This document shows, one piece after another, positions 27,964 to 35,402 of a stretch of DNA of 57,036 bases (the first letter of the stretch is position 1; each line of letters starts with the position of its first letter). Origin of the DNA: Patescibacteria group bacterium (lineage in GTDB: Bacteria > Patescibacteriota > Minisyncoccia > Phycocordibacterales > UBA2100). A program made the position numbers and the translations under genes. The stretch is from assembly GCA_038062075.1 (NCBI GenBank), contig JBBTXY010000008.1, positions 1 to 57,036 on the forward strand, given 5' to 3'. The notes below the pieces were generated by a model. The model was not told the DNA's origin, searched no databases, and worked only from the letters and a program-made list of their open reading frames with translations.

Positions 27964-28356
27964 CTATCGCTTACTCCATTGAGGGGCACGTCGCGCCGCT
28001 TTGAGGCCGAATTTCTTGCGCTCTTTGGCGCGCGGGTCGCGCTTCAAATAGCCTTTTACTTTCAAGTCTTTGCGGAGTGCTGCATCCATTTCGGTAAGCG
28101 CGCGGGAGATGCCGTGGCGCACGGCTTCTGCTTGCGCTTTGTGACCGCCGCCTTTCACGATAGCCGTTACGGTGTAGGCGCCGCCGACGGTCTTAAATGG
28201 CGCGTTCACAGTATCAACCATGACGGGAAGCGGAAAGTAATCCGACGCGTTCTTGTCGTTCACCATGATAGAAGTCGATTTTGCAGAAGCGAGGCGCACG
28301 CGTGCTGATGCCGTCTTCCGGCGCCCGACTGCTTCAATGTATTTCTTTTCGGCCAT
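27964..28356 (-). CDS. rpsI: 30S ribosomal protein S9
   Basis: GRRKTA, GGGHKAQ, ERKKFGL..PQWSKR. Confidence 0.97.
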   Translation of the reverse strand: MAEKKYIEAVGRRKTASARVRLASAKSTSIMVNDKNASDYFPLPVMVDTVNAPFKTVGGAYTVTAIVKGGGHKAQAEAVRHGISRALTEMDAALRKDLKVKGYLKRDPRAKERKKFGLKAARRAPQWSKR

Positions 28357-28403
28357 ATGAATAGTTAGTTAGCCACTAGCGACTAGGGTTTAGGAAGATG
28401 CAT

Positions 28404-28766
28404 TTACTCAGTAACTATTAAACGCTTGAGACGTGCGGTTTTCATCGTGTTGCGCGGAAGCATGCGCTCGACTGCCTTGCGCACTGCGGCACTTGCGCCG
28501 CGGCGGCCGATGAGTGATGCGAGCGTCTCTTTCTTCAAACCTCCCGGATGGCCCGAATAGTGCGTGTAAACCTTACTAAGGCGCTTTTTCTCGCTGATGC
28601 GCATCTTCTTGGCATTCGTGACGCTAACCTTCACCTGCGAAGGAATATGCGGCGTGTAATCGGGAGAAGTCTTCCCCATGAGCGCTCTCGCGACTTCCGA
28701 CGCGACGCGGCCGATGGTTTTGCCAGCGGCATCGATCGTGTAGGTTGTTTCTTTTGTGTGAGCCAT
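28404..28766 (-). CDS. rplM: 50S ribosomal protein L13
   Basis: IDAAGKTIGRVAS, HYSGHPGGLK, AVERMLP. Confidence 0.95.
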   Translation of the reverse strand: MAHTKETTYTIDAAGKTIGRVASEVARALMGKTSPDYTPHIPSQVKVSVTNAKKMRISEKKRLSKVYTHYSGHPGGLKKETLASLIGRRGASAAVRKAVERMLPRNTMKTARLKRLIVTE

Positions 28767-28768
28767 AG

Positions 28769-29122
28769 CTATGCGACAAATTCTATCCGTGCCATTTCGG
28801 CGATACGCTTCCCTATGCGACCGAGGCGCACGATGCGCGTGTAGCCGCCCGCACGTGCTGCATAGCGCGGCGCTAAGGTATCATGCAACTTCTTTACCGC
28901 TTCCGACGAGCGCAGGCGCGACGCGACAATGCGACGGCTCGCAAGGGAACCCTTCTTCGCTTCAGTGACGAGGCCCTCCGCAAAAGGACGCAGTTCCTTC
29001 GCCTTCGCGACGGTAGTCGTAATAGCATCTGCAAGCACCAAGGAACGAGCAAGGGAGCGCAGAAGGGCCTCGCGCTGCGCTTTTGGTCTATTCAGTGTCC
29101 GTCGTTTCTTGTGATGCCGCAT
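28769..29122 (-). CDS. rplQ: 50S ribosomal protein L17
   Basis: MRH, ITTTVAKAKELR, GGYTRI. Confidence 0.96.
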   Translation of the reverse strand: MRHHKKRRTLNRPKAQREALLRSLARSLVLADAITTTVAKAKELRPFAEGLVTEAKKGSLASRRIVASRLRSSEAVKKLHDTLAPRYAARAGGYTRIVRLGRIGKRIAEMARIEFVA

Positions 29123-29172
29123 AAACTAGGTGTTAGGTTCTAGGGACTAGGTTCTAGAAAAAATAAAATACA

Positions 29173-30141
29173 TTATTGGGTACGAAGGGTGAGACCGAGA
29201 TTCGAGAGAGCGCGCTTGATATCTTGCAAGCCTTTTTGGCCCAAGCCCTCGATAGCAAGAAGGTCATCTTCGCGCTTCCTCACGAGGCCGCCGACAGTGC
29301 GAATGGAAGCGTTATCAAGCGCCTGCTCGACACGCTGGGGCAGATTCAGTTCTGAAATGCGCGTCTTCAAGACTTCCGCATCAGCGGTTCTTTCTTCCCG
29401 CCGCGCACCCACTCCTGCCTCTTCGGCAGCGGCTTCCTCGATAACTTCCTCTTCCTTAAAGCCGACGATCGCGCGCAGCTGGTGGATCATCGTCTCGATG
29501 GATCTTTCCAGCGCTTCGCGCGCGGTGATGGTACCGTCCGTCTCAATAAGCATGCGCAGGCGATTGAAGTCGGTGCGGTCACCGACACGCATATTCTCGA
29601 CTTCGTAGTTCACGCGGCGAATGGGGCTGAAAATGGCATCAAGCGCGATCGTGCCGATGTCCACACGCTCCTTTTGATGCACTTCTTTCGGCACATAGCC
29701 GAGCCCGCGCTCCGCGCGGACCTCCATCTCCAATGTGACCTTCCCTGTCACCTCCGCGATGTGCTGCTCGGGGTTCAATATTTCTACTTGGCCGGGTAGA
29801 TCGAAATCGGCGGCCGTTATGGTCTTCGGGCCTTTGACGGAGAGCCTTAAGGTCTGCGGCTCGTCGGTCGTGAGCTTAAGGCGCATCTTGCGCACATTGA
29901 GAAGCAGCGTCACGATATCTTCTTTGACGCCCTCGATGGTCGAGAATTCGTGCGCGACGCCCGGGATCTTCACCGAGGTTACTGCCGCGCCGGGAAGCGA
30001 AGAGAGAATGATACGGCGCAAGGAATTCCCCAATGTATAGCCGTAGCCCGGGTAAAGTCCATCGATCTCATACACACCGCTGCGCTCCGATTCGGAGACG
30101 ACACGCGGTTTAGAAGGCAGTGCAATATGGTAATCCAACAT
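29173..30141 (-). CDS. rpoA: RNA polymerase alpha subunit
   Basis: GYGYTLGNSLRRIILSSLPG, HEFSTIEGVKED, alpha-CTD. Confidence 0.97.
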   Translation of the reverse strand: MLDYHIALPSKPRVVSESERSGVYEIDGLYPGYGYTLGNSLRRIILSSLPGAAVTSVKIPGVAHEFSTIEGVKEDIVTLLLNVRKMRLKLTTDEPQTLRLSVKGPKTITAADFDLPGQVEILNPEQHIAEVTGKVTLEMEVRAERGLGYVPKEVHQKERVDIGTIALDAIFSPIRRVNYEVENMRVGDRTDFNRLRMLIETDGTITAREALERSIETMIHQLRAIVGFKEEEVIEEAAAEEAGVGARREERTADAEVLKTRISELNLPQRVEQALDNASIRTVGGLVRKREDDLLAIEGLGQKGLQDIKRALSNLGLTLRTQ

Positions 30142-30179
30142 ATTAAAAAATGGCGCGAGGTGAATAAGCGCTTATAAAT

Positions 30180-30208
30180 AATATACCCCAAACACTAAAA
30201 AGTGGCAA
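30180..30208 (-). promoter_or_regulatory. Sigma70-type internal promoter for rpoA
   Basis: TTGCCA-N17-TATATT. Confidence 0.6.
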
Positions 30209-30292
30209 GGGTTAGACTGGTAATATTCGGCTGCATGACGTCGATGGCACAAGTGCATAGTAAGCTGGAAAGACTTTAGTGATGGGCAGGCA

Positions 30293-30898
30293 CTAACGCG
30301 AATAAAACTCAAATACTGCCGGATAATCGAGGGGGATCTCTGCAGGCGTATAGGTCGGCTCGCCTTCTATCTTCACCATCATGGTCGGTAGGTCGACGGA
30401 GAGCCATGAGGGAATGGAGCGTGAGGCACTCTCGGGATTCCCCAAGTGAGAGAACAGGGGGCTTTTTCGACTTCCTTCGCGCACCGAGATCGAGTCGCCC
30501 TTCTTAAGGCGCATGGAAGGCGTCGTCACGCGCGTGCCATTCACGACTAAGTGGCCGTGGGATGCCATCTGCCTGGCGGCGCGGCGTGTAAGCGCCAAGC
30601 CTGCACGATACGCGACACTATCGAGACGCATCTCGAGCGCGTGATGCAAACTCTCCGGCGGGTTCGCCGTCTCGAACGCGGCTTCCGCGTAATTGGCAAG
30701 CTGGCGCTCCGGAAGGCCGTAGGTAAAGCGTACTTTCTGCTTTTCCAAAAGTTGCCGGCCGAAATCCGATTTCCCGCGACCGCCACGCGTCTTTTTCGTA
30801 CGCGCCTCGGAGAGCGCGAATTTCTGCGTCTGCGTCTGCTCGAAAATAGCAGCACCTAAACGCTTCGCGATCTTGTATTTTGATTTGATGGGCAGCAT
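30293..30898 (-). CDS. rpsD: 30S ribosomal protein S4
   Basis: QLLEKQK, LEMRLD, ARQMASHGH, EFYSR. Confidence 0.96.
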   Translation of the reverse strand: MLPIKSKYKIAKRLGAAIFEQTQTQKFALSEARTKKTRGGRGKSDFGRQLLEKQKVRFTYGLPERQLANYAEAAFETANPPESLHHALEMRLDSVAYRAGLALTRRAARQMASHGHLVVNGTRVTTPSMRLKKGDSISVREGSRKSPLFSHLGNPESASRSIPSWLSVDLPTMMVKIEGEPTYTPAEIPLDYPAVFEFYSR

Positions 30899-31086
30899 AT
30901 TAGATTTTGTTAGCGAGCGCAGCGAGCTTAGAAAATCTTATACCCGCCCATCCGCCATCTTGTAAATGACGGTCTACATTTAGGTTTGACACGGTGATTT
31001 TTGTAAAGAAGTTGATCATATTTGTTGCAAGTGGCGGATAGGCGGGTGATGAAAATTATTGTCGCTTCGCTCTGTAATTTTCCATC
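30899..31086. repeat. Three-part structured element, copy A (rpsK-rpsD gap)
   Basis: Hairpin with GAGCGCAGCGA; inner IR 30942-30957/31032-31047; hairpin with TCGCTTCGCTC. Confidence 0.85.
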
Positions 31087-31519
31087 AAATGCGGCGAGGC
31101 TTCGGCGGCCGCGGACCGTTGTGCGGGACCGGCGTATCATCGGCGATGCGCGTCACCTCGATGCCTTTGCCGGCAAAACCGCGCAGCGCTGATTCGCGGC
31201 CGCTCCCAACGCCGCGGATGACCACATCGACTTCCTTGACGCCCATCATCGCAGCCTTCTCGCCGAGAAGCTCTCCCACCTTCGCCGCCGCGAATGGCGT
31301 TCCCTTCTTTGCGCCGGAGAAGCCCAAAGCGCCCGAAGACGACCACGCGACAGTATTGCCTTCTTTGTCGGCCAAGGTAACCATCGTGTTGTTGTAGGTC
31401 GCTTGGATAAAGAGCGTTCCTGATGCAAGCGTACGTTTTGCGGTCCTGGCAAGGGAGCGGGATTTCAGTCCCTGATCGACCGTGCCTCCTGATTTCCTGA
31501 TGATGCGTTTTTTGCCCAT
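31085..31519 (-). CDS. rpsK: 30S ribosomal protein S11
   Basis: ATYNNT, KKGTPFAA, PVPHNG. Confidence 0.97.
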   Translation of the reverse strand: MGKKRIIRKSGGTVDQGLKSRSLARTAKRTLASGTLFIQATYNNTMVTLADKEGNTVAWSSSGALGFSGAKKGTPFAAAKVGELLGEKAAMMGVKEVDVVIRGVGSGRESALRGFAGKGIEVTRIADDTPVPHNGPRPPKPRRI

Positions 31520-31702
31520 AGATTTTTGTTACGAGCGTAGCGAGTTAGAAAAATCTATGCCCGCCCAAAATTTTCGCGTGTACGCTCTTGTGTCAAGTAG
31601 ATTAATTATAGGTGATTCCATACGTTATATTGATGTTGTTCGATTGTTCGAAAATTTAGGCGGGCTAAGAAAATCTAATTCACTTCGCTCATGAGATTTT
31701 CT
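31520..31702. repeat. Three-part structured element, copy B (rpsM-rpsK gap)
   Basis: Hairpin with GAGCGTAGCGA; inner IR 31559-31576/31649-31665; hairpin with TCACTTCGCTC. Confidence 0.85.
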
Positions 31703-32084
31703 AAGTTTTCTCCAATTTGCGTCTGCCGGAAGTCATGGTCTTGCGGACATTACCACGGACAGTGCGCGAGTTGGTCTTCGTGGTCTGGCCGCGCACCGGC
31801 AGCTTCTTCGCATGACGCACGCCGCGGTGAGATTTGATGTCTTTGAGACGCCGGATGTTCCCTGATATGAAGCGGCGAAGCTCGCCTTCGACAACGAACG
31901 ACTCGATCGCCTCGCGCAGGGCAGATTCACTCTTCGTGGAAAGTTTATCGGGGCGCGTACCGGGGTCAATTCCCAACTTCTCGAGGGTCTCCCGCGCACG
32001 CGGGCGTCCCACGCCATAGATCGCCGTGAGACCGATCTCAAGGCGTTTGGTATCTGGAATGGTAATGCCTGCGATACGGAGCAT
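31701..32084 (-). CDS. rpsM: 30S ribosomal protein S13
   Basis: RIAGI, LTAIYGVG, LPVRGQTTKTNSRT. Confidence 0.97.
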   Translation of the reverse strand: MLRIAGITIPDTKRLEIGLTAIYGVGRPRARETLEKLGIDPGTRPDKLSTKSESALREAIESFVVEGELRRFISGNIRRLKDIKSHRGVRHAKKLPVRGQTTKTNSRTVRGNVRKTMTSGRRKLEKT

Positions 32085-32170
32085 AGTTGTTGTAAATGTT
32101 GTAGTTGTTATAAGTGTTCTAGATGCGATTCAATTCGTGCATTTTTAACATGTTGAACATATATAACGGC

Positions 32171-32284
32171 TTAACCTTGTCGTTGTTTGTGGCGCGGATT
32201 CGTGCAAATAACCCACAGTCGTCCATGCCGGCGCACATGCCGGCACTTCAAACAGATTTTCTTGACCGATGCTTTGACTTTCAT
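32171..32284 (-). CDS. rpmJ: 50S ribosomal protein L36 (missing from the ORF track)
   Basis: Hand translation [37 protein letters not shown]. Confidence 0.97.
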
Positions 32285-32480
32285 GGCTGATTTTTACAGA
32301 GCGAAGCGACAATAAAAATCGCCACCCGCCCATCCGCCTAAATTTTTAGGTGTGGCAATGAGGTTATCTTGTCTTTCGAACGTATTTTTTTCAATGTTGA
32401 TCATATGCTTGTTTTAAAAATTTGGGCGGATAGGCGGGTAAGGTTATTTCTAACTCACGTACGTTCGTAAGAAAAACCTT
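32285..32480. repeat. Three-part structured element, copy C (infA-rpmJ gap)
   Basis: Hairpin with GAGCGAAGCGA; inner IR 32324-32348/32415-32439; terminal hairpin 32440-32480. Confidence 0.85.
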
Positions 32481-32721
32481 AGAACCTTCGCACGATGCGA
32501 GCCCGCCCACCGTAGGGATCGAGTTGGAGAGAAACTTTATCTCCGACTAAGACCTTTATCCTATGTAAACGCATTTTCCCCGCGAGATAGGCAAGCTGGA
32601 GCTCACCGCTCGGGAGTTTGACTCGGAACAGCGTATTCGGAAGGGCCTCTTCAACGATACCCTCCACGACTTCTGGTTCCTCCATACCTGCCACACGAAT
32701 ATGATTAGATTGTTCGTCCAC
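32479..32721 (-). CDS. infA: Translation initiation factor IF-1 (start may be ATG 32685)
   Basis: EALPNTLFRV, LAGKMR, GDKV, RIVRR. Confidence 0.95.
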   Translation of the reverse strand: MDEQSNHIRVAGMEEPEVVEGIVEEALPNTLFRVKLPSGELQLAYLAGKMRLHRIKVLVGDKVSLQLDPYGGRARIVRRF

Positions 32722-32802
32722 TCCGGCTACACTCGTGTGTAAACGACCTGAATAAACGATCTAGTAATGCGTGTCGTGTGTACAGGCATGTCTGCGCTCA
32801 AG

Positions 32803-32831
32803 ATATTAGCAGGAGTGTGCTGGTAAGTCAA
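32803..32831 (-). promoter_or_regulatory. Sigma70-type promoter of the infA-rpsI operon
   Basis: TTGACT-N17-TAATAT. Confidence 0.65.
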
Positions 32832-32834
32832 CCA

Positions 32835-34181
32835 TCAGAAGGGTCGTGCGGGTTCCTCGACCGTGACCGTGATCTTTGCAGGATCCGAGGGGAAGGCATG
32901 CTTCCAAAAAGGCGTGATGCGTGCCCGTGCTTCTTCAACCGCAGGAAAGCCCTGGATGATGGTCTCGAATGCCGATTCCTCGCGCCCCGCAAGGGCTTCG
33001 GAGAGCGCATTCGCATCGACGTTCCACACCAACTGTCCGGAGCCGGAGAGGTTGAAATTCAAGGGCTTCTCCCCCATCTCCTGCTGCGCCAAGGTTGACG
33101 TGGCCTGTGCGGAGATATTGTCTGCAAAATGTAATGAGATGGACTGCCCTTCCGCGCTCGCGCTTACGGCCTGTGCGATCACCTGCGCGAAAACGGCTTC
33201 CGGGAATATCGGGAGTGTGATCGTCGCTCGCTCATGGACGCGCACGCCCCCTCCCGACTCTGATGTCGGTGGCAGGGTCTCGAATGTAATGTTGGCAAGG
33301 CCAGGAAATGCGAGCGACCCTTCAGGCACTGCTTGTGCAAGCTCCTTCGCCTTCTCGTGCAAGCGTCCCCGTATTTCAGAGCGTGCTGCCTCAAGTGTCG
33401 CGGGAGGCACCGCAGGACGATTGCCGGAGAATCCGCCGGTAAATGCAGCGGTTGATCTCGCATAGACCTTTTCGTACATATCCGGCGTCGACTTGAGGCC
33501 GGGGAGCGTAAAGCGATCGACAGGCGCGATGTTGTAGCTCTCCCCCGTCTGGTCCGCAAAGACCGTCACCTGGATGGTGCCCGGGGTCCCGCCTTTTCGC
33601 CCCGGCACATCAACGGAAGCGGGAATGCGGAACACGAGCCCGTTGGGGCTTTGGAACCGCGTGTTCTTGATGAGGCGCACCGGAGCGTCAGAATATGCAT
33701 TGTAGATTGTGATAGTGCCCGTTGCCTTTTCTTGCGCCTCTTCGACGCCACTTGCCGAGACGACCGCGGAATCATCATAGGATTGTGAGACGACCGTGTA
33801 GGAAATACTTCCTGCCGCAGCGCTCGCTGCCGGATAGGCGGTAAAAAGCGTCGCGGCGTCGAAAGGAACGATCTGCGTGTGCGGCGAAACGTTGATCGTG
33901 GTCGAGGGGAAGAAGACCAAGATACCTGCGCCGATAAGAACGACGAGCGCCACTATCGCGGCAACCCACATACCCCAACGCCCGCGCTTGCGCGGGGTGC
34001 TGTATTCGTTCGTGAGGGGAGGTCGCGCGGGAGTAGCCCGCGACATGCGCTGGCGGGTAGATGGCTGGATGTTGCGGATGGACCTTTCAGGGGTCATATG
34101 CGGTTCGGCTTCCGGCTCCGCGCCAGATAGCGCTGGTTCGTCTTCCGGGACGATATCCTGCATGTAATTACGTGCGGCCAT
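32835..34181 (-). CDS. Bitopic membrane protein with a baseplate-J-like extracytoplasmic region
   Basis: Disordered N-terminus, single TM, ATGTITIYN..LIKNTRF..VDVPG..VFADQTGESYNI. Confidence 0.7.
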   Translation of the reverse strand: MAARNYMQDIVPEDEPALSGAEPEAEPHMTPERSIRNIQPSTRQRMSRATPARPPLTNEYSTPRKRGRWGMWVAAIVALVVLIGAGILVFFPSTTINVSPHTQIVPFDAATLFTAYPAASAAAGSISYTVVSQSYDDSAVVSASGVEEAQEKATGTITIYNAYSDAPVRLIKNTRFQSPNGLVFRIPASVDVPGRKGGTPGTIQVTVFADQTGESYNIAPVDRFTLPGLKSTPDMYEKVYARSTAAFTGGFSGNRPAVPPATLEAARSEIRGRLHEKAKELAQAVPEGSLAFPGLANITFETLPPTSESGGGVRVHERATITLPIFPEAVFAQVIAQAVSASAEGQSISLHFADNISAQATSTLAQQEMGEKPLNFNLSGSGQLVWNVDANALSEALAGREESAFETIIQGFPAVEEARARITPFWKHAFPSDPAKITVTVEEPARPF

Positions 34182-34256
34182 ATGTGAAGGCTTACTGGGC
34201 GTATAAGAACGCCTGCGACCCGGGCAGTATACCATGGTCACGAACGAGGGGAGTCA

Positions 34257-35402
34257 TCATGTGGATTGCATGAGCTGCACGCTGAAAGCGGCCGTCGCGA
34301 TCCCCGTGTCAGGCACTCCCTCTTTCCCCCAGGATACTGAATCACGTAAGTGCTCCGGCGTGAGTGTCTCAACAATGAATGGCTGCGTCGTTGTTGTGAA
34401 CTGCGAAAAATCGATGCGCGAGAAGAATCCGTGGAGCCATTGCGAGAGCTCGAGCGGGGCGACAAGGATGGTGGCATTCGGAAGCCGGCGCACGCCGGCA
34501 AGTGAAGTGAACACTTCGCCGAACGCACGCACGAGATCGGGCTCGGCACGCGCGAGGGAATCCTTCAGAGCTTCGCATGCGCTTGACGAACAGGTGTCGG
34601 TCGCGAGCATGCGCAGGAGGGACATCGTCTCCTCCGGAAGCCCCCCACTTGCGACACGCTTCAGGATGGTCGCTAACCCTTCCGAAGCGGCGGCATATTG
34701 CGTGATGGCGTCGCGGCGCACGACCGCGCAGGCGGTCGTCGCGCTACCGAGGTCGATGAGAAAGAAGCGCTGCAGTTCGGGGAGATACTCCTGCATGACG
34801 ATGAGGAGCGCGCGAAGCCCTGAGTGCAGGGAGAGCGGCCGATCAGGAAGAAGCGCTGCGACCTCATCGGTGATCGCCCGCTTCATCGCGGGGTCGATAT
34901 CACTCTCGAACGCCACAACACTGATCGAGCTCGCATGCTTTCCCAGAGGGTTCCCGGTCGGATACCCATTGAGGAACACCTGCATGACGCCCGCTTCTAA
35001 GATGCTCGAGCGATCCAATTCCGACGGTTGCGCCAAGGCTTGCTTGGCGAAGCGCGCAATGACATCTTTCGTGATGGTCTGCTCTTTCTCGAATGCGCCA
35101 TCTGCGCGCGCGGTACGGAAACGCGTCCAGGGCGCACGAAGCACCACGTGCGCCGCAGACGGCGCAGTACCCCCTTTCTCTCGATACGTTTTCAAGAACT
35201 TCTCAGCGGTATCTTTGAAAAGATTCGTGATGGCGGCGAGTATTTGTTCATGAGTGCGATCTTCGAAGGGAAGCGTCGCACGTGTCGATGCATGCACCTG
35301 CACCGGTGTATGTCCAAGTGTTACTAAAGAGACACCGACGCTCCCATCGCCGATATCGACGATAAGGACCGGCTTCCCTACGCCGCGCTTGATAGAAAAC
35401 AT
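34257..35402 (-). CDS. Divergent actin-fold (FtsA/PilM-like) protein
   Basis: IVDIGDGSVG and LIDLGSATT phosphate-loop-like motifs. Confidence 0.65.
   Translation of the reverse strand: MFSIKRGVGKPVLIVDIGDGSVGVSLVTLGHTPVQVHASTRATLPFEDRTHEQILAAITNLFKDTAEKFLKTYREKGGTAPSAAHVVLRAPWTRFRTARADGAFEKEQTITKDVIARFAKQALAQPSELDRSSILEAGVMQVFLNGYPTGNPLGKHASSISVVAFESDIDPAMKRAITDEVAALLPDRPLSLHSGLRALLIVMQEYLPELQRFFLIDLGSATTACAVVRRDAITQYAAASEGLATILKRVASGGLPEETMSLLRMLATDTCSSSACEALKDSLARAEPDLVRAFGEVFTSLAGVRRLPNATILVAPLELSQWLHGFFSRIDFSQFTTTTQPFIVETLTPEHLRDSVSWGKEGVPDTGIATAAFSVQLMQST

Follow-up and report, generated by a model that had tools for sequence, protein, structure and literature searches.

A modular palindromic repeat family of Candidatus Kaiserbacteria fills three gaps of a ribosomal protein operon

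The window, that is, the whole stretch of 57,036 nucleotides that was analysed (contig JBBTXY010000008.1), carries on its minus strand an operon that codes for IF-1, L36, S13, S11, S4 and RpoA, as identified by Pfam. The source organism is a tiny groundwater bacterium with an 815-kb genome (90% complete). Three junctions of the operon, infA-rpmJ (194 nt), rpsM-rpsK (181 nt) and rpsK-rpsD (186 nt), are each filled exactly, from the upstream stop codon to the next start codon. The same architecture is found in all three, as an earlier note on this DNA had claimed: each copy comprises, in the order of the transcribed minus strand, a stop-codon hairpin (H1), a long stem with an AT-rich loop and a start-side hairpin (H2). 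In the window copies the long-stem arms measure 15-25 bp and the loop 66-77 nt. When the DNA contigs of four runs were compared, the contig of one run (X3) was identical to positions 30821-32215; among the contig joints listed for the four runs, which come from relatives at low likeness, none removes an element precisely. The features are as follows.

30899..31084, minus strand: element A, rpsK-rpsD gap, 186 nt (inverted repeats, gap comparison, fold)
30896..30943, minus strand: H2 of A, start-side, loop UCGCUGCGCUC, ending at the rpsD ATG (30896-30898) (model R1, 72.4 bits; fold)
30942..31047, minus strand: long stem of A, arms 30942-30957/31032-31047 (16 nt, 94% complementary, 74 nt between)
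31048..31087, minus strand: H1 of A, stop-side, loop GAGCGAAGCGA, taking in the rpsK stop TGA (31085-31087)
31520..31700, minus strand: element B, rpsM-rpsK gap, 181 nt (inverted repeats, gap comparison, fold)
31517..31560, minus strand: H2 of B, with an 11-bp lower stem that includes the entire rpsK ATG (31517-31519) (R1, 30.5 bits)
31559..31665, minus strand: long stem of B, 15-bp arms, 77-nt loop
31662..31705, minus strand: H1 of B, loop GAGCGAAGUGA, taking in the rpsM stop TAG (31701-31703) (26.5 bits when read on the plus strand)
32285..32478, minus strand: element C, infA-rpmJ gap, 194 nt (inverted repeats, gap comparison, fold)
32282..32325, minus strand: start-side hairpin of C, with the rpmJ ATG at 32282-32284 (fold)
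32324..32439, minus strand: long stem of C, arms 32324-32348/32415-32439 (25 nt, 92% complementary, 66 nt between)
32440..32481, minus strand: stop-side hairpin of C, loop diverged, taking in the infA stop TAA (32479-32481)

In element B a longer pairing of the long stem is also seen (31554-31573/31651-31670, 20 nt, 80% complementary, 77 nt between). The hairpin cap GAGCG(C/T/A)AGCGA was located at 30915, 31533 and 32299, and its inverse at 31062; on the start-side hairpins 30898-30914/30926-30942 and 31517-31532/31544-31559 the cap is 11 nt long. Positions 31056-31077 and 32294-32315 are exact reverse complements, as previously noticed, the core of the start-side hairpin of C being the exact reverse complement of the core of H1 of A, and the overlap of the stop-side hairpins with the three stop codons was likewise borne out. 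On either side of the long stem, the loop of H1 is an inverted copy of that of H2; the stems of the two hairpins are not related by such simple inversion. Predicted RNA folds of the three elements gave z values of -5.5, -6.8 and -7.8, and equally stable shuffles were obtained in 0 of 200 cases. Pairing of H1 with H2 is favoured over three separate hairpins in the predicted folds of A and B, and C is predicted to form three hairpins. The idea that the loops of the two hairpins kiss or co-evolve was rejected (9.59 complementary positions within elements versus 9.72 between elements). When pieces of H2 and H1 were compared with 16S rRNA from two members of the genus, a single complementary 8-mer was found, in the H1 loop.

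The covariation of H1, H2 and the long-stem arms is strong. For H2, analysed with a hand-set structure and model R1, pairing reached 92%, whereas shuffles gave 73% and 80% and slid partners 14-46%, and the pairs had changed on both sides in 16 of 16 and 11 of 16 cases. For H1, 10.0 of 14 positions are paired between a copy's own two flanks, versus 8.55 (sd 0.13) for flanks swapped between copies. Long-stem arms vary among copies yet stay complementary, with 1447 of 1551 pairs Watson-Crick and a duplex of 13-25 bp between cistrons in 95 copies; this set was drawn from 122 copies left after near-duplicates were merged, copies with a stem score under 8 or with less than 200 nt upstream being excluded. 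Owing to misalignment, no structure emerged from RNAalifold when eight H2 copies were simply aligned with MAFFT. The covarying stems of H2 carry a conserved apex, conserved internal loops and a conserved A-A mismatch. A mismatch in all three long stems had been read as a wobble pair on the transcribed strand. One G-U on the sense strand is indeed present per long stem; over the 95 long stems, 34 G-U versus 26 A-C give no general strand signal. The further idea of exceptionally stable single-stranded d(GCGNAGC) mini-hairpins gains nothing: the tip pairs covary, AU taking the place of GC, and the motif is therefore not preserved exactly.

The element is repeated at nine loci of the genome, the three window copies and six others. 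It is present in 15 of 24 same-genus genomes, with 0 to 18 copies per genome, and many Candidatus Kaiserbacteria MAGs also carry it, and the family counts more than 120 copies; spacer subfamilies recur at different loci among different genomes. No match to Rfam 15 was obtained on the elements (E<=10 in 28000-35000; six loci from other classes at E<=1), and literature searches on palindromic intergenic repeats in Patescibacteria, on intergenic sequence in Kaiserbacteria and on CPR miniature inverted-repeats found nothing on the element. Phage records gave no match, and two pattern matches on viral contigs were unconfirmed by the model. The view that the element is undescribed therefore stands, and the strong covariation and the many further copies run counter to both grounds of refutation that the earlier note had named. 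The best explanation of the three filled gaps is a modular repeat family of Candidatus Kaiserbacteria (Patescibacteria).

Placement relative to genes is strikingly regular. H2 ends at the ATG or 2 nt into it in 37/37 copies from the source genome and the genus, and abuts the ATG in 78/92 copies from other MAGs (from 94 matches, two cut by locus ends being left out). The element has one orientation relative to the genes, and its register to the start codon is near absolute. H2 stands before the same genes in many species. All ten downstream products that were tested could be named (SecY, L4, L2, NusA, SerRS, RpoA, L3, FtsZ, GroEL and RpoB); gene names other than these and the Pfam-checked operon set were judged from N-termini. 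About 8 of the 92 hairpins lie away from any start codon, some of them directly 3' of tRNA genes, and at one locus (L141) H1-type hairpins directly follow tRNA genes. The modules also occur apart: the dnaA 5' leader has a long stem and H2 without H1, some H2 copies stand alone without long stem or H1, and in one case (L013) H2 lies inside an open frame continuing from the upstream gene. The abutment of start codons across the family, together with the short spacer frame described below, goes beyond the earlier note.

In the five closest relatives, a sister clade with good support, each of the three junctions measures 1-42 nt, so the three copies are insertions. The empty junctions are of the TAA-n-ATG type, without a Shine-Dalgarno motif. 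Presence on the tree is scattered and requires at least four changes. No target-site duplication was visible when the three filled sites were compared with empty ones. Entry into the operon by insertion indicates that the element spreads like a MITE or a REPIN, in agreement with the mobile behaviour suggested before. In relatives the same gaps are filled by other palindromic repeat families. The earlier note had also proposed looking for a linked HUH or tyrosine recombinase. Six HUH-Y1 genes (PF01797) are present in the genome, but no R1 match (E<=1) was found within ~1.5-2 kb of the Y1 genes at any of 20 loci in the source and related genomes, and copy number does not follow Y1 gene number, one genome having 18 copies and one Y1 gene and another 0 copies and six Y1 genes. 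The palindrome that borders one RayT-like gene is a different one. DDE_Tnp_1, rve and TnpB-type domains had no match in the 90% complete genome.

Each window copy holds a short open frame, which in A runs from within the loop through the right arm and H2; the frames of A and C have the common start ATGATCAAC.

30900..31019, minus strand: short frame of A, 39 codons, TAA 1 nt before the rpsD ATG
31529..31621, minus strand: short frame of B, 30 codons, TAA 9 nt before the rpsK ATG
32294..32404, minus strand: short frame of C, 36 codons, TAA 9 nt before the rpmJ ATG

Among large-loop copies, a loop ATG opens a frame of 19-44 codons through H2 in 36/54, versus 7.8 expected from loop shuffles, the 36/54 overstating the number of independent cases since copies share ancestry. 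Such an ATG-started frame is missing from 18/54 large-loop copies, and 13/54 have no terminating ATG frame at all. Sorted by loop class, frames occur in 38/54 copies with loops of 60-80 nt versus 3/14 and 6/19 in the compact classes; 22/33 compact copies have no terminating ATG frame either, yet keep H2. The distance from stop to gene ATG, in frames of at least 20 codons, is 1 nt in 20/38 and 3 nt in 12/38. Codon-position periodicity was not detected (0.540, 0.564 and 0.537) in the ten frames used, which had been picked as open, so their openness is circular. With no periodicity, only the openness of the frame, and not the peptide, could be under selection. The short-frame ATG lies ~70 nt past the upstream stop and has no Shine-Dalgarno motif. 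A more accessible start for the short frame was unsupported: the predicted unpaired probability is 0.52 around its AUG versus 0.47 around the gene AUG, the short frame's AUG codon itself is less open (0.35 versus 0.44), and the two starts are thus not told apart by predicted accessibility.

Gene starts of the genome carry a leaderless signature, and Shine-Dalgarno motifs are few. Of 706 crude gene starts, 106 have a TANNNT that begins precisely at -12; AGGAG was counted 26 times in the vicinity of starts, and the sequence ahead of starts shows no enrichment of words that could pair with the 16S tail. The ATGs served by the element have no TANNNT at -12.

The above findings suggest a MITE- or REPIN-like spreading module that acts on the mRNA as a translational relay, a reading to which we assign a rough probability of 0.4. 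On the transcribed strand the upstream gene stops inside H1, and the long stem holds out the AT-rich loop of ~70 nt, where an ATG opens a frame of 30-39 codons that passes through the right arm and H2 and ends 1-9 nt before the gene ATG. If the short frame is translated, its ribosomes may melt H2 and reinitiate on the downstream gene. The relay would then restore, or boost, a translational coupling otherwise broken by the insert, and such coupling would matter given the leaderless signature and the scarcity of Shine-Dalgarno motifs. Counting against the relay, the frames of B and C stop 9 nt before the ATG, not 1-3 nt, many copies without such a frame keep H2, some hairpins lie away from any start codon, the short-frame ATG has no Shine-Dalgarno motif, codon periodicity is absent and the two starts do not differ in predicted accessibility. 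A bolder version, which we entertain only tentatively, is that the element is a portable translation-initiation cassette, a mobile RNA module equipped with a dock for the stop codon, a leader cistron displayed in the loop and a hairpin at the start codon. Because it would bring its own dock, leader cistron and start hairpin, the cassette could land between tightly coupled genes, in an organism poor in Shine-Dalgarno motifs, while keeping or raising downstream expression.

It is somewhat unlikely that the element is purely selfish, a REPIN- or MITE-like sequence folding as single-stranded DNA and moved in trans by an HUH-Y1 (IS200/RayT-like) transposase, with the open frame and the stop-start fit being merely what selection tolerates inside essential operons. 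The patchy presence and variable copy number, the empty sites of the closest relatives, the spacer subfamilies at different loci, the mutually inverted hairpin loops, the six PF01797 matches within 815 kb and the other palindromic repeats in relatives' gaps are what such an element would leave, and the 34:26 ratio gives the RNA strand no advantage. Against it stand the 0/20 Y1 loci with a nearby hairpin, Y1 gene numbers that copy number does not follow, the lack of a visible target-site duplication, H1 and H2 stems that each maintain their own pairing, and H2 at the same genes in many species. Orientation and register to the start codon are, moreover, near absolute, unlike the random extragenic placement of REPINs reported in PMC3116915.

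The element could also punctuate the mRNA: an endonuclease such as RNase III would cut the long stem, H1 would shield the upstream 3' end and H2 the downstream 5' end. The inter-cistron duplex of 95 copies, the hairpins precisely at the ends and starts of coding regions, the H1-type hairpins after tRNA genes at L141 and the dnaA leader lacking H1 would suit this, and there is precedent in T7 RNase III sites and in Correia elements. Punctuation is nevertheless unlikely, as it leaves the enrichment of frames and the stop beside the ATG unexplained, and a hairpin flush with the AUG should impede initiation on the processed message. We consider it quite improbable that a trans-acting protein binds H2 (and H1) and so controls translation or stability of a housekeeping regulon. 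Conserved internal loops, A-A mismatch and apex on covarying stems, a fixed register to the AUG, H2 copies standing alone, and targets such as ribosomal proteins, polymerase subunits, chaperones, FtsZ and SecY are consistent with an operator; its absence from 9/24 genus genomes and the variability of orthologous junctions would be odd for a core regulon.

A DNA-level cassette, with transcription terminated at H1 or the long stem and begun anew from the spacer or H2, is very unlikely. TTACAA-17-TATAAG spans the right arm of A, TATAAT lies in the spacer of B, and a leaderless promoter signature is common in the genome, but a consensus scan of 29100-32800 gave 3 promoter-like sites versus 2.8 expected, candidate -10 positions vary between copies and covary with the stem partner, and the served ATGs lack TANNNT at -12; with consensus sites at chance level and no terminator-like site in the elements, this candidate was rejected. 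Finally, it is hardly credible that the short frames encode functional small proteins sharing a C-terminus, since open frames and a common tail encoded by H2 are outweighed by absent codon periodicity, paired tail changes that obey RNA pairing and not protein logic, and the lack of a Pfam match, the frame of A having none.

Patescibacteria genomes are tiny, yet ~190 nt are spent at each of several essential-operon junctions. If the ribosome relay is true, it would represent a route of gene expression where Shine-Dalgarno pairing is rare and leaderless starts and coupling are apparently common, and a selfish repeat could be harmless or even useful within ribosomal operons. If the cassette reading is true, the element would be a natural, self-spreading counterpart of an engineered bicistronic design. 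The element offers a testable natural model of leader-cistron coupling, a marker with which insertion dynamics could be followed in uncultured bacteria of groundwater and, for Rfam-type curation, a well-covarying RNA or single-stranded DNA motif of more than 120 copies.

Among known systems, REPINs are, according to PMC3116915, REP doublets of inverted units and a spacer that form a long hairpin in single-stranded DNA or mRNA and are placed at random in extragenic space. The element resembles them in being small, non-autonomous, multi-copy and lineage-restricted (PMC3116915), in having Y1-HUH genes in the same genome, in its inverted hairpin loops flanking a long stem and in the predicted H1-H2 pairing of A and B. 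It differs from REPIN/RAYT systems, where a RAYT gene flanked by the same REPs stands close by, in not lying near any Y1 gene (0/20 loci), in being flush with start codons in one orientation (37/37 and 78/92), and in carrying a reading frame and embedding the flanking stop codon. DDE-type MITEs have a target-site duplication and an autonomous partner with the same ends; here no duplication is visible at the three filled sites, and no transposase of the DDE_Tnp_1, rve or TnpB type was matched in the genome. Correia/NEMIS, ERIC and RUP elements are palindromic inserts of 100-200 bp, co-transcribed as long RNA hairpins, some of them RNase III substrates, with fixed terminal inverted repeats, target duplications and either orientation; the present element lacks a visible duplication, is fixed in orientation and has stop and start codons as its ends. 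In palindrome-associated elements derived from IS200/IS605 the subterminal hairpins share one orientation on one strand, unlike the inverted loops found here. An integron attC site is an imperfect palindrome whose ends are R''/R' core sites of the form GTTRRRY; GTTAGCG and GTTACGA do not fit this form, and the flanking genes here are a conserved operon, not cassettes. An intrinsic terminator is a G+C-rich stem followed by a U run, and no site like it was found within the elements by consensus scan.

Three further systems share the reading frame. Rickettsia palindromic elements are reportedly selfish and translatable, in frame within coding regions; the present elements lie between cistrons, the H2 at L013 coming closest to the Rickettsia arrangement. 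In the bicistronic design, a short leader cistron is said to end at the gene start, where ribosomes unfold structure and reinitiate. The engineered version uses Shine-Dalgarno sites, and none are seen here; the likeness lies in a leader frame ending at the gene start, with a relay function that would be analogous. The MIRUs of Mycobacterium tuberculosis are reported to be intra-operon intergenic repeats of ~50 bp, in tandem direct arrays oriented with the genes, whose small frames overlap neighbouring stop and start codons and for which a coupling role is said to have been proposed. They differ in lacking the three-hairpin architecture and covarying stems, and the element comes as one palindromic copy per gap, but its frame, too, follows the gene orientation and meets the next start codon at its end.

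The earlier note's coordinates and details for the three gap elements were borne out when the sequence was re-examined, and the exact 22-nt reverse complement that it had reported between hairpins of two copies was confirmed. ORF calls and Pfam place infA, rpmJ, rpsM, rpsK, rpsD and rpoA on the minus strand of the window, with three gaps that, in mRNA sense, share one set of parts spanning the whole distance between stop and start codon. Each copy also carries a short frame, opened by an ATG in the loop and running through the start-side hairpin.

30899-31084, minus strand: copy A, rpsK-rpsD gap (186 nt); short frame of 39 codons, stop 1 nt before the ATG
31520-31700, minus strand: copy B, rpsM-rpsK gap (181 nt); short frame of 30 codons, stop 9 nt before the ATG
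32285-32478, minus strand: copy C, infA-rpmJ gap (194 nt); short frame of 36 codons, stop 9 nt before the ATG
H1, stop-side hairpin: ~40 nt, upstream stop codon within its 5' strand, cap GAGCGNAGCGA
Long stem: 15-25 bp, ACCCGCC... with ...GGCGGGU, enclosing an AT-rich loop of 66-77 nt
H2, start-side hairpin: ~45 nt, inverse cap UCGCUNCGCUC, terminating at the next ATG

RNA folds of A, B and C gave z of -5.5 to -7.8 against shuffles; at minimum energy, H1 pairs with H2 in A and B, and C forms three separate hairpins. The 86-nt rpmJ-rpsM gap (32085-32170) contains another kind of repeat, two tandem 18-nt units (32084-32119) plus a palindrome (32141-32160), and similar 'ttgtagatgttgta'-type inserts occupy gaps in loci L065 and L067 of other genomes. 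The rpsM start (32052-32095, minus) gave a weak Rfam Alpha_RBS match (RF00140; 28.4 bits vs a gathering score of 38, E = 0.0015). Judged from sequence, rpoA apparently has a promoter of its own, because TGGTATACT is kept in relatives directly after the rpsD stop and the rpsD-rpoA gap holds a promoter-like TTGCCA-17-TATATT (30180-30208, minus).

The element had been proposed to be undescribed, and Rfam scans of the window (E<=10) and of six loci of other classes (E<=1) returned no match to it; further copies were found. Two profile searches of the window genome (815 kb, 33 contigs), the first built from all three copies and the second restricted to H2, revealed the module before six more ATGs on other contigs, those of rplO, map, nrdB, dnaA, a solute-binding protein gene and a 38-codon frame, the gene names being our reading of the N-termini. 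The dnaA copy, with divergent rpmH upstream, has the long stem and H2 and lacks H1. The map copy (C27:11181-11268, minus) has a 28-nt G+C palindrome nested within H2 and a long stem without spacer, its mismatch on the opposite strand. With a covariance model built on H2, hits appeared in 15 of the 24 genomes from the genus, between 1 and 18 apiece, and in 1 of 16 drawn from the order's other families. Across 185,579 species genomes, a strict pattern scan picked out 88 stretches. Nearly all belong to MAGs that carry a Candidatus Kaiserbacteria, Parcubacteria, Paceibacterota or Patescibacteria label, and the model confirmed 94 hairpins in the 88; phage and viral collections gave no confirmed match.

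The element is an insertion in these gaps. Among 30 same-genus alpha operons most gaps measure 1-40 nt (e.g. TAA-t-ATG), and the element family occupies rpsK-rpsD in two, rpsM-rpsK in four, whose long stems belong to three different classes, and infA-rpmJ in the window genome only. On a tree from S13, S11 and S4, the five other members of the window genome's clade (support 100/99) show short gaps at each of the three junctions, and element presence required at least four changes. A has its arms and its short-frame start in common with C, which fits recent within-genome copying. Unrelated palindromic repeat families occupy the same gaps in other genomes: at least three were seen in stop-to-start gaps of relatives (L041, L044, L053, L054, L058, L063, L065, L066), made up of repeated 8-9-mers together with the inverse of these, e.g. 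ctacgaat...attcgtag and cttctagc...gctagaag.

Its structure is under selection, and the claim that stems differ between copies while pairing is kept was upheld by covariation in H2, H1 and the long-stem arms. H2 pairing reached 92% on model-fitted alignments, which are biased towards the model, vs 73% and 80% for shuffles and 14-46% for slid partners, the control that addresses this bias; both sides had changed in 16/16 and 11/16 pairs. For H1, a copy's own flanks scored 10.0 in pairing vs 8.55 (sd 0.13) for flanks exchanged between copies, and the arms exist in many sequence versions with complementarity retained. Co-variation between H1 and H2 loops within an element was not found; what is kept are local hairpins, not an H1-H2 duplex.

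Placement at genes was precise. All 37 genus hairpins end at an ATG (offset -3, -1 or -5), and in other MAGs 78 of 92 hairpins show an ATG at -3 or -1 whose frame stays open for 50 codons or more or extends past the locus end, a few more preceding short genes such as rpmJ; the downstream products tested (10/10) were SecY, L4, L2, NusA, SerRS, RpoA, L3, FtsZ, GroEL and RpoB. The H1 cap is present in 61 of 95 copies, mostly at a constant distance of 25 nt upstream of the long stem, and the upstream stop codon lies 29-43 nt before that stem, within the H1 5' strand. About eight of the 92 lack a start codon, including L141:29-77 and L141:7724-7771, in H1 orientation immediately 3' of a tRNA-Val and a tRNA-Leu gene. 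Both are followed by a G+C hairpin; the contig's Alphaproteobacteria label may be a binning error. The frame through H2 at L013:863-910 is open for 213 codons upstream and its end falls 3 nt short of the secY ATG, so that H2 seems to code for a C-terminal extension of the preceding gene.

A TANNNT motif with its first base at exactly -12 marks 106 of the 706 crude gene starts in the window genome (neighbouring offsets, ~5-36). The strongest word enrichment at that position is for GTATA and ATACT, and Shine-Dalgarno words are rare (AGGAG, 26 times). Such a pattern is the signature of many leaderless mRNAs, and it fits a picture in which many first genes are leaderless and later operon genes rely on translational coupling. 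In a same-genus genome (L176, G016:C4) the Rfam SSU match ends in ...GGAAUCAUUCAAAC, in place of the expected CCUCC. The window genome has no assembled 16S; its starts show no upstream enrichment of words that would pair with the 16S tail of that one genome.

Long-stem loops fall into classes of 3-9 nt, about 14-59 nt (many with two small G+C hairpins) and a narrow maximum at 61-79 nt (54 copies). In 36 of these 54, a loop ATG opens a frame through the right arm and H2 with its stop at most 14 nt before the gene ATG, vs 7.8 expected from loop shuffles; among frames of at least 20 codons (n=38), 20 stop 1 nt short of the ATG and 12 stop 3 nt short. Such a frame is mostly missing from the compact classes, and predicted accessibility gave the short frame's start no advantage.

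Because G-U and A-C stand at 34:26 in the long stems, pairing alone does not tell RNA from ssDNA. A purely selfish ssDNA element is rather unlikely, weakened because none of 20 HUH-Y1 (PF01797) transposase loci in this and related genomes has the hairpin within about 1.5-2 kb and because copy number shows no relation to how many Y1 genes a genome has; the linkage to an HUH recombinase raised earlier was not found at these loci. The window genome has six PF01797 matches (C31:13155-13655, C3:98560-99489, C13:32867-33517, C3:78723-79403, C21:36655-37659 and C13:269-499), one IS200-like (166 aa) and five RayT-like (216-334 aa); the gene at C13:32867 has its own palindrome on both flanks. A putative processing or stability module is less probable, a protein operator doubtful even beside that, and a promoter or terminator cassette very improbable. 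Small protein genes are the most remote reading: the short frames showed neither codon periodicity nor a Pfam match, and at most being translated, not the peptide, is the selected feature.

We tentatively favour (probability about 0.4) a spreading module that acts as a putative translational relay on mRNA, with ribosomes passing from the short frame to the downstream gene, and that resembles MITEs and REPINs.
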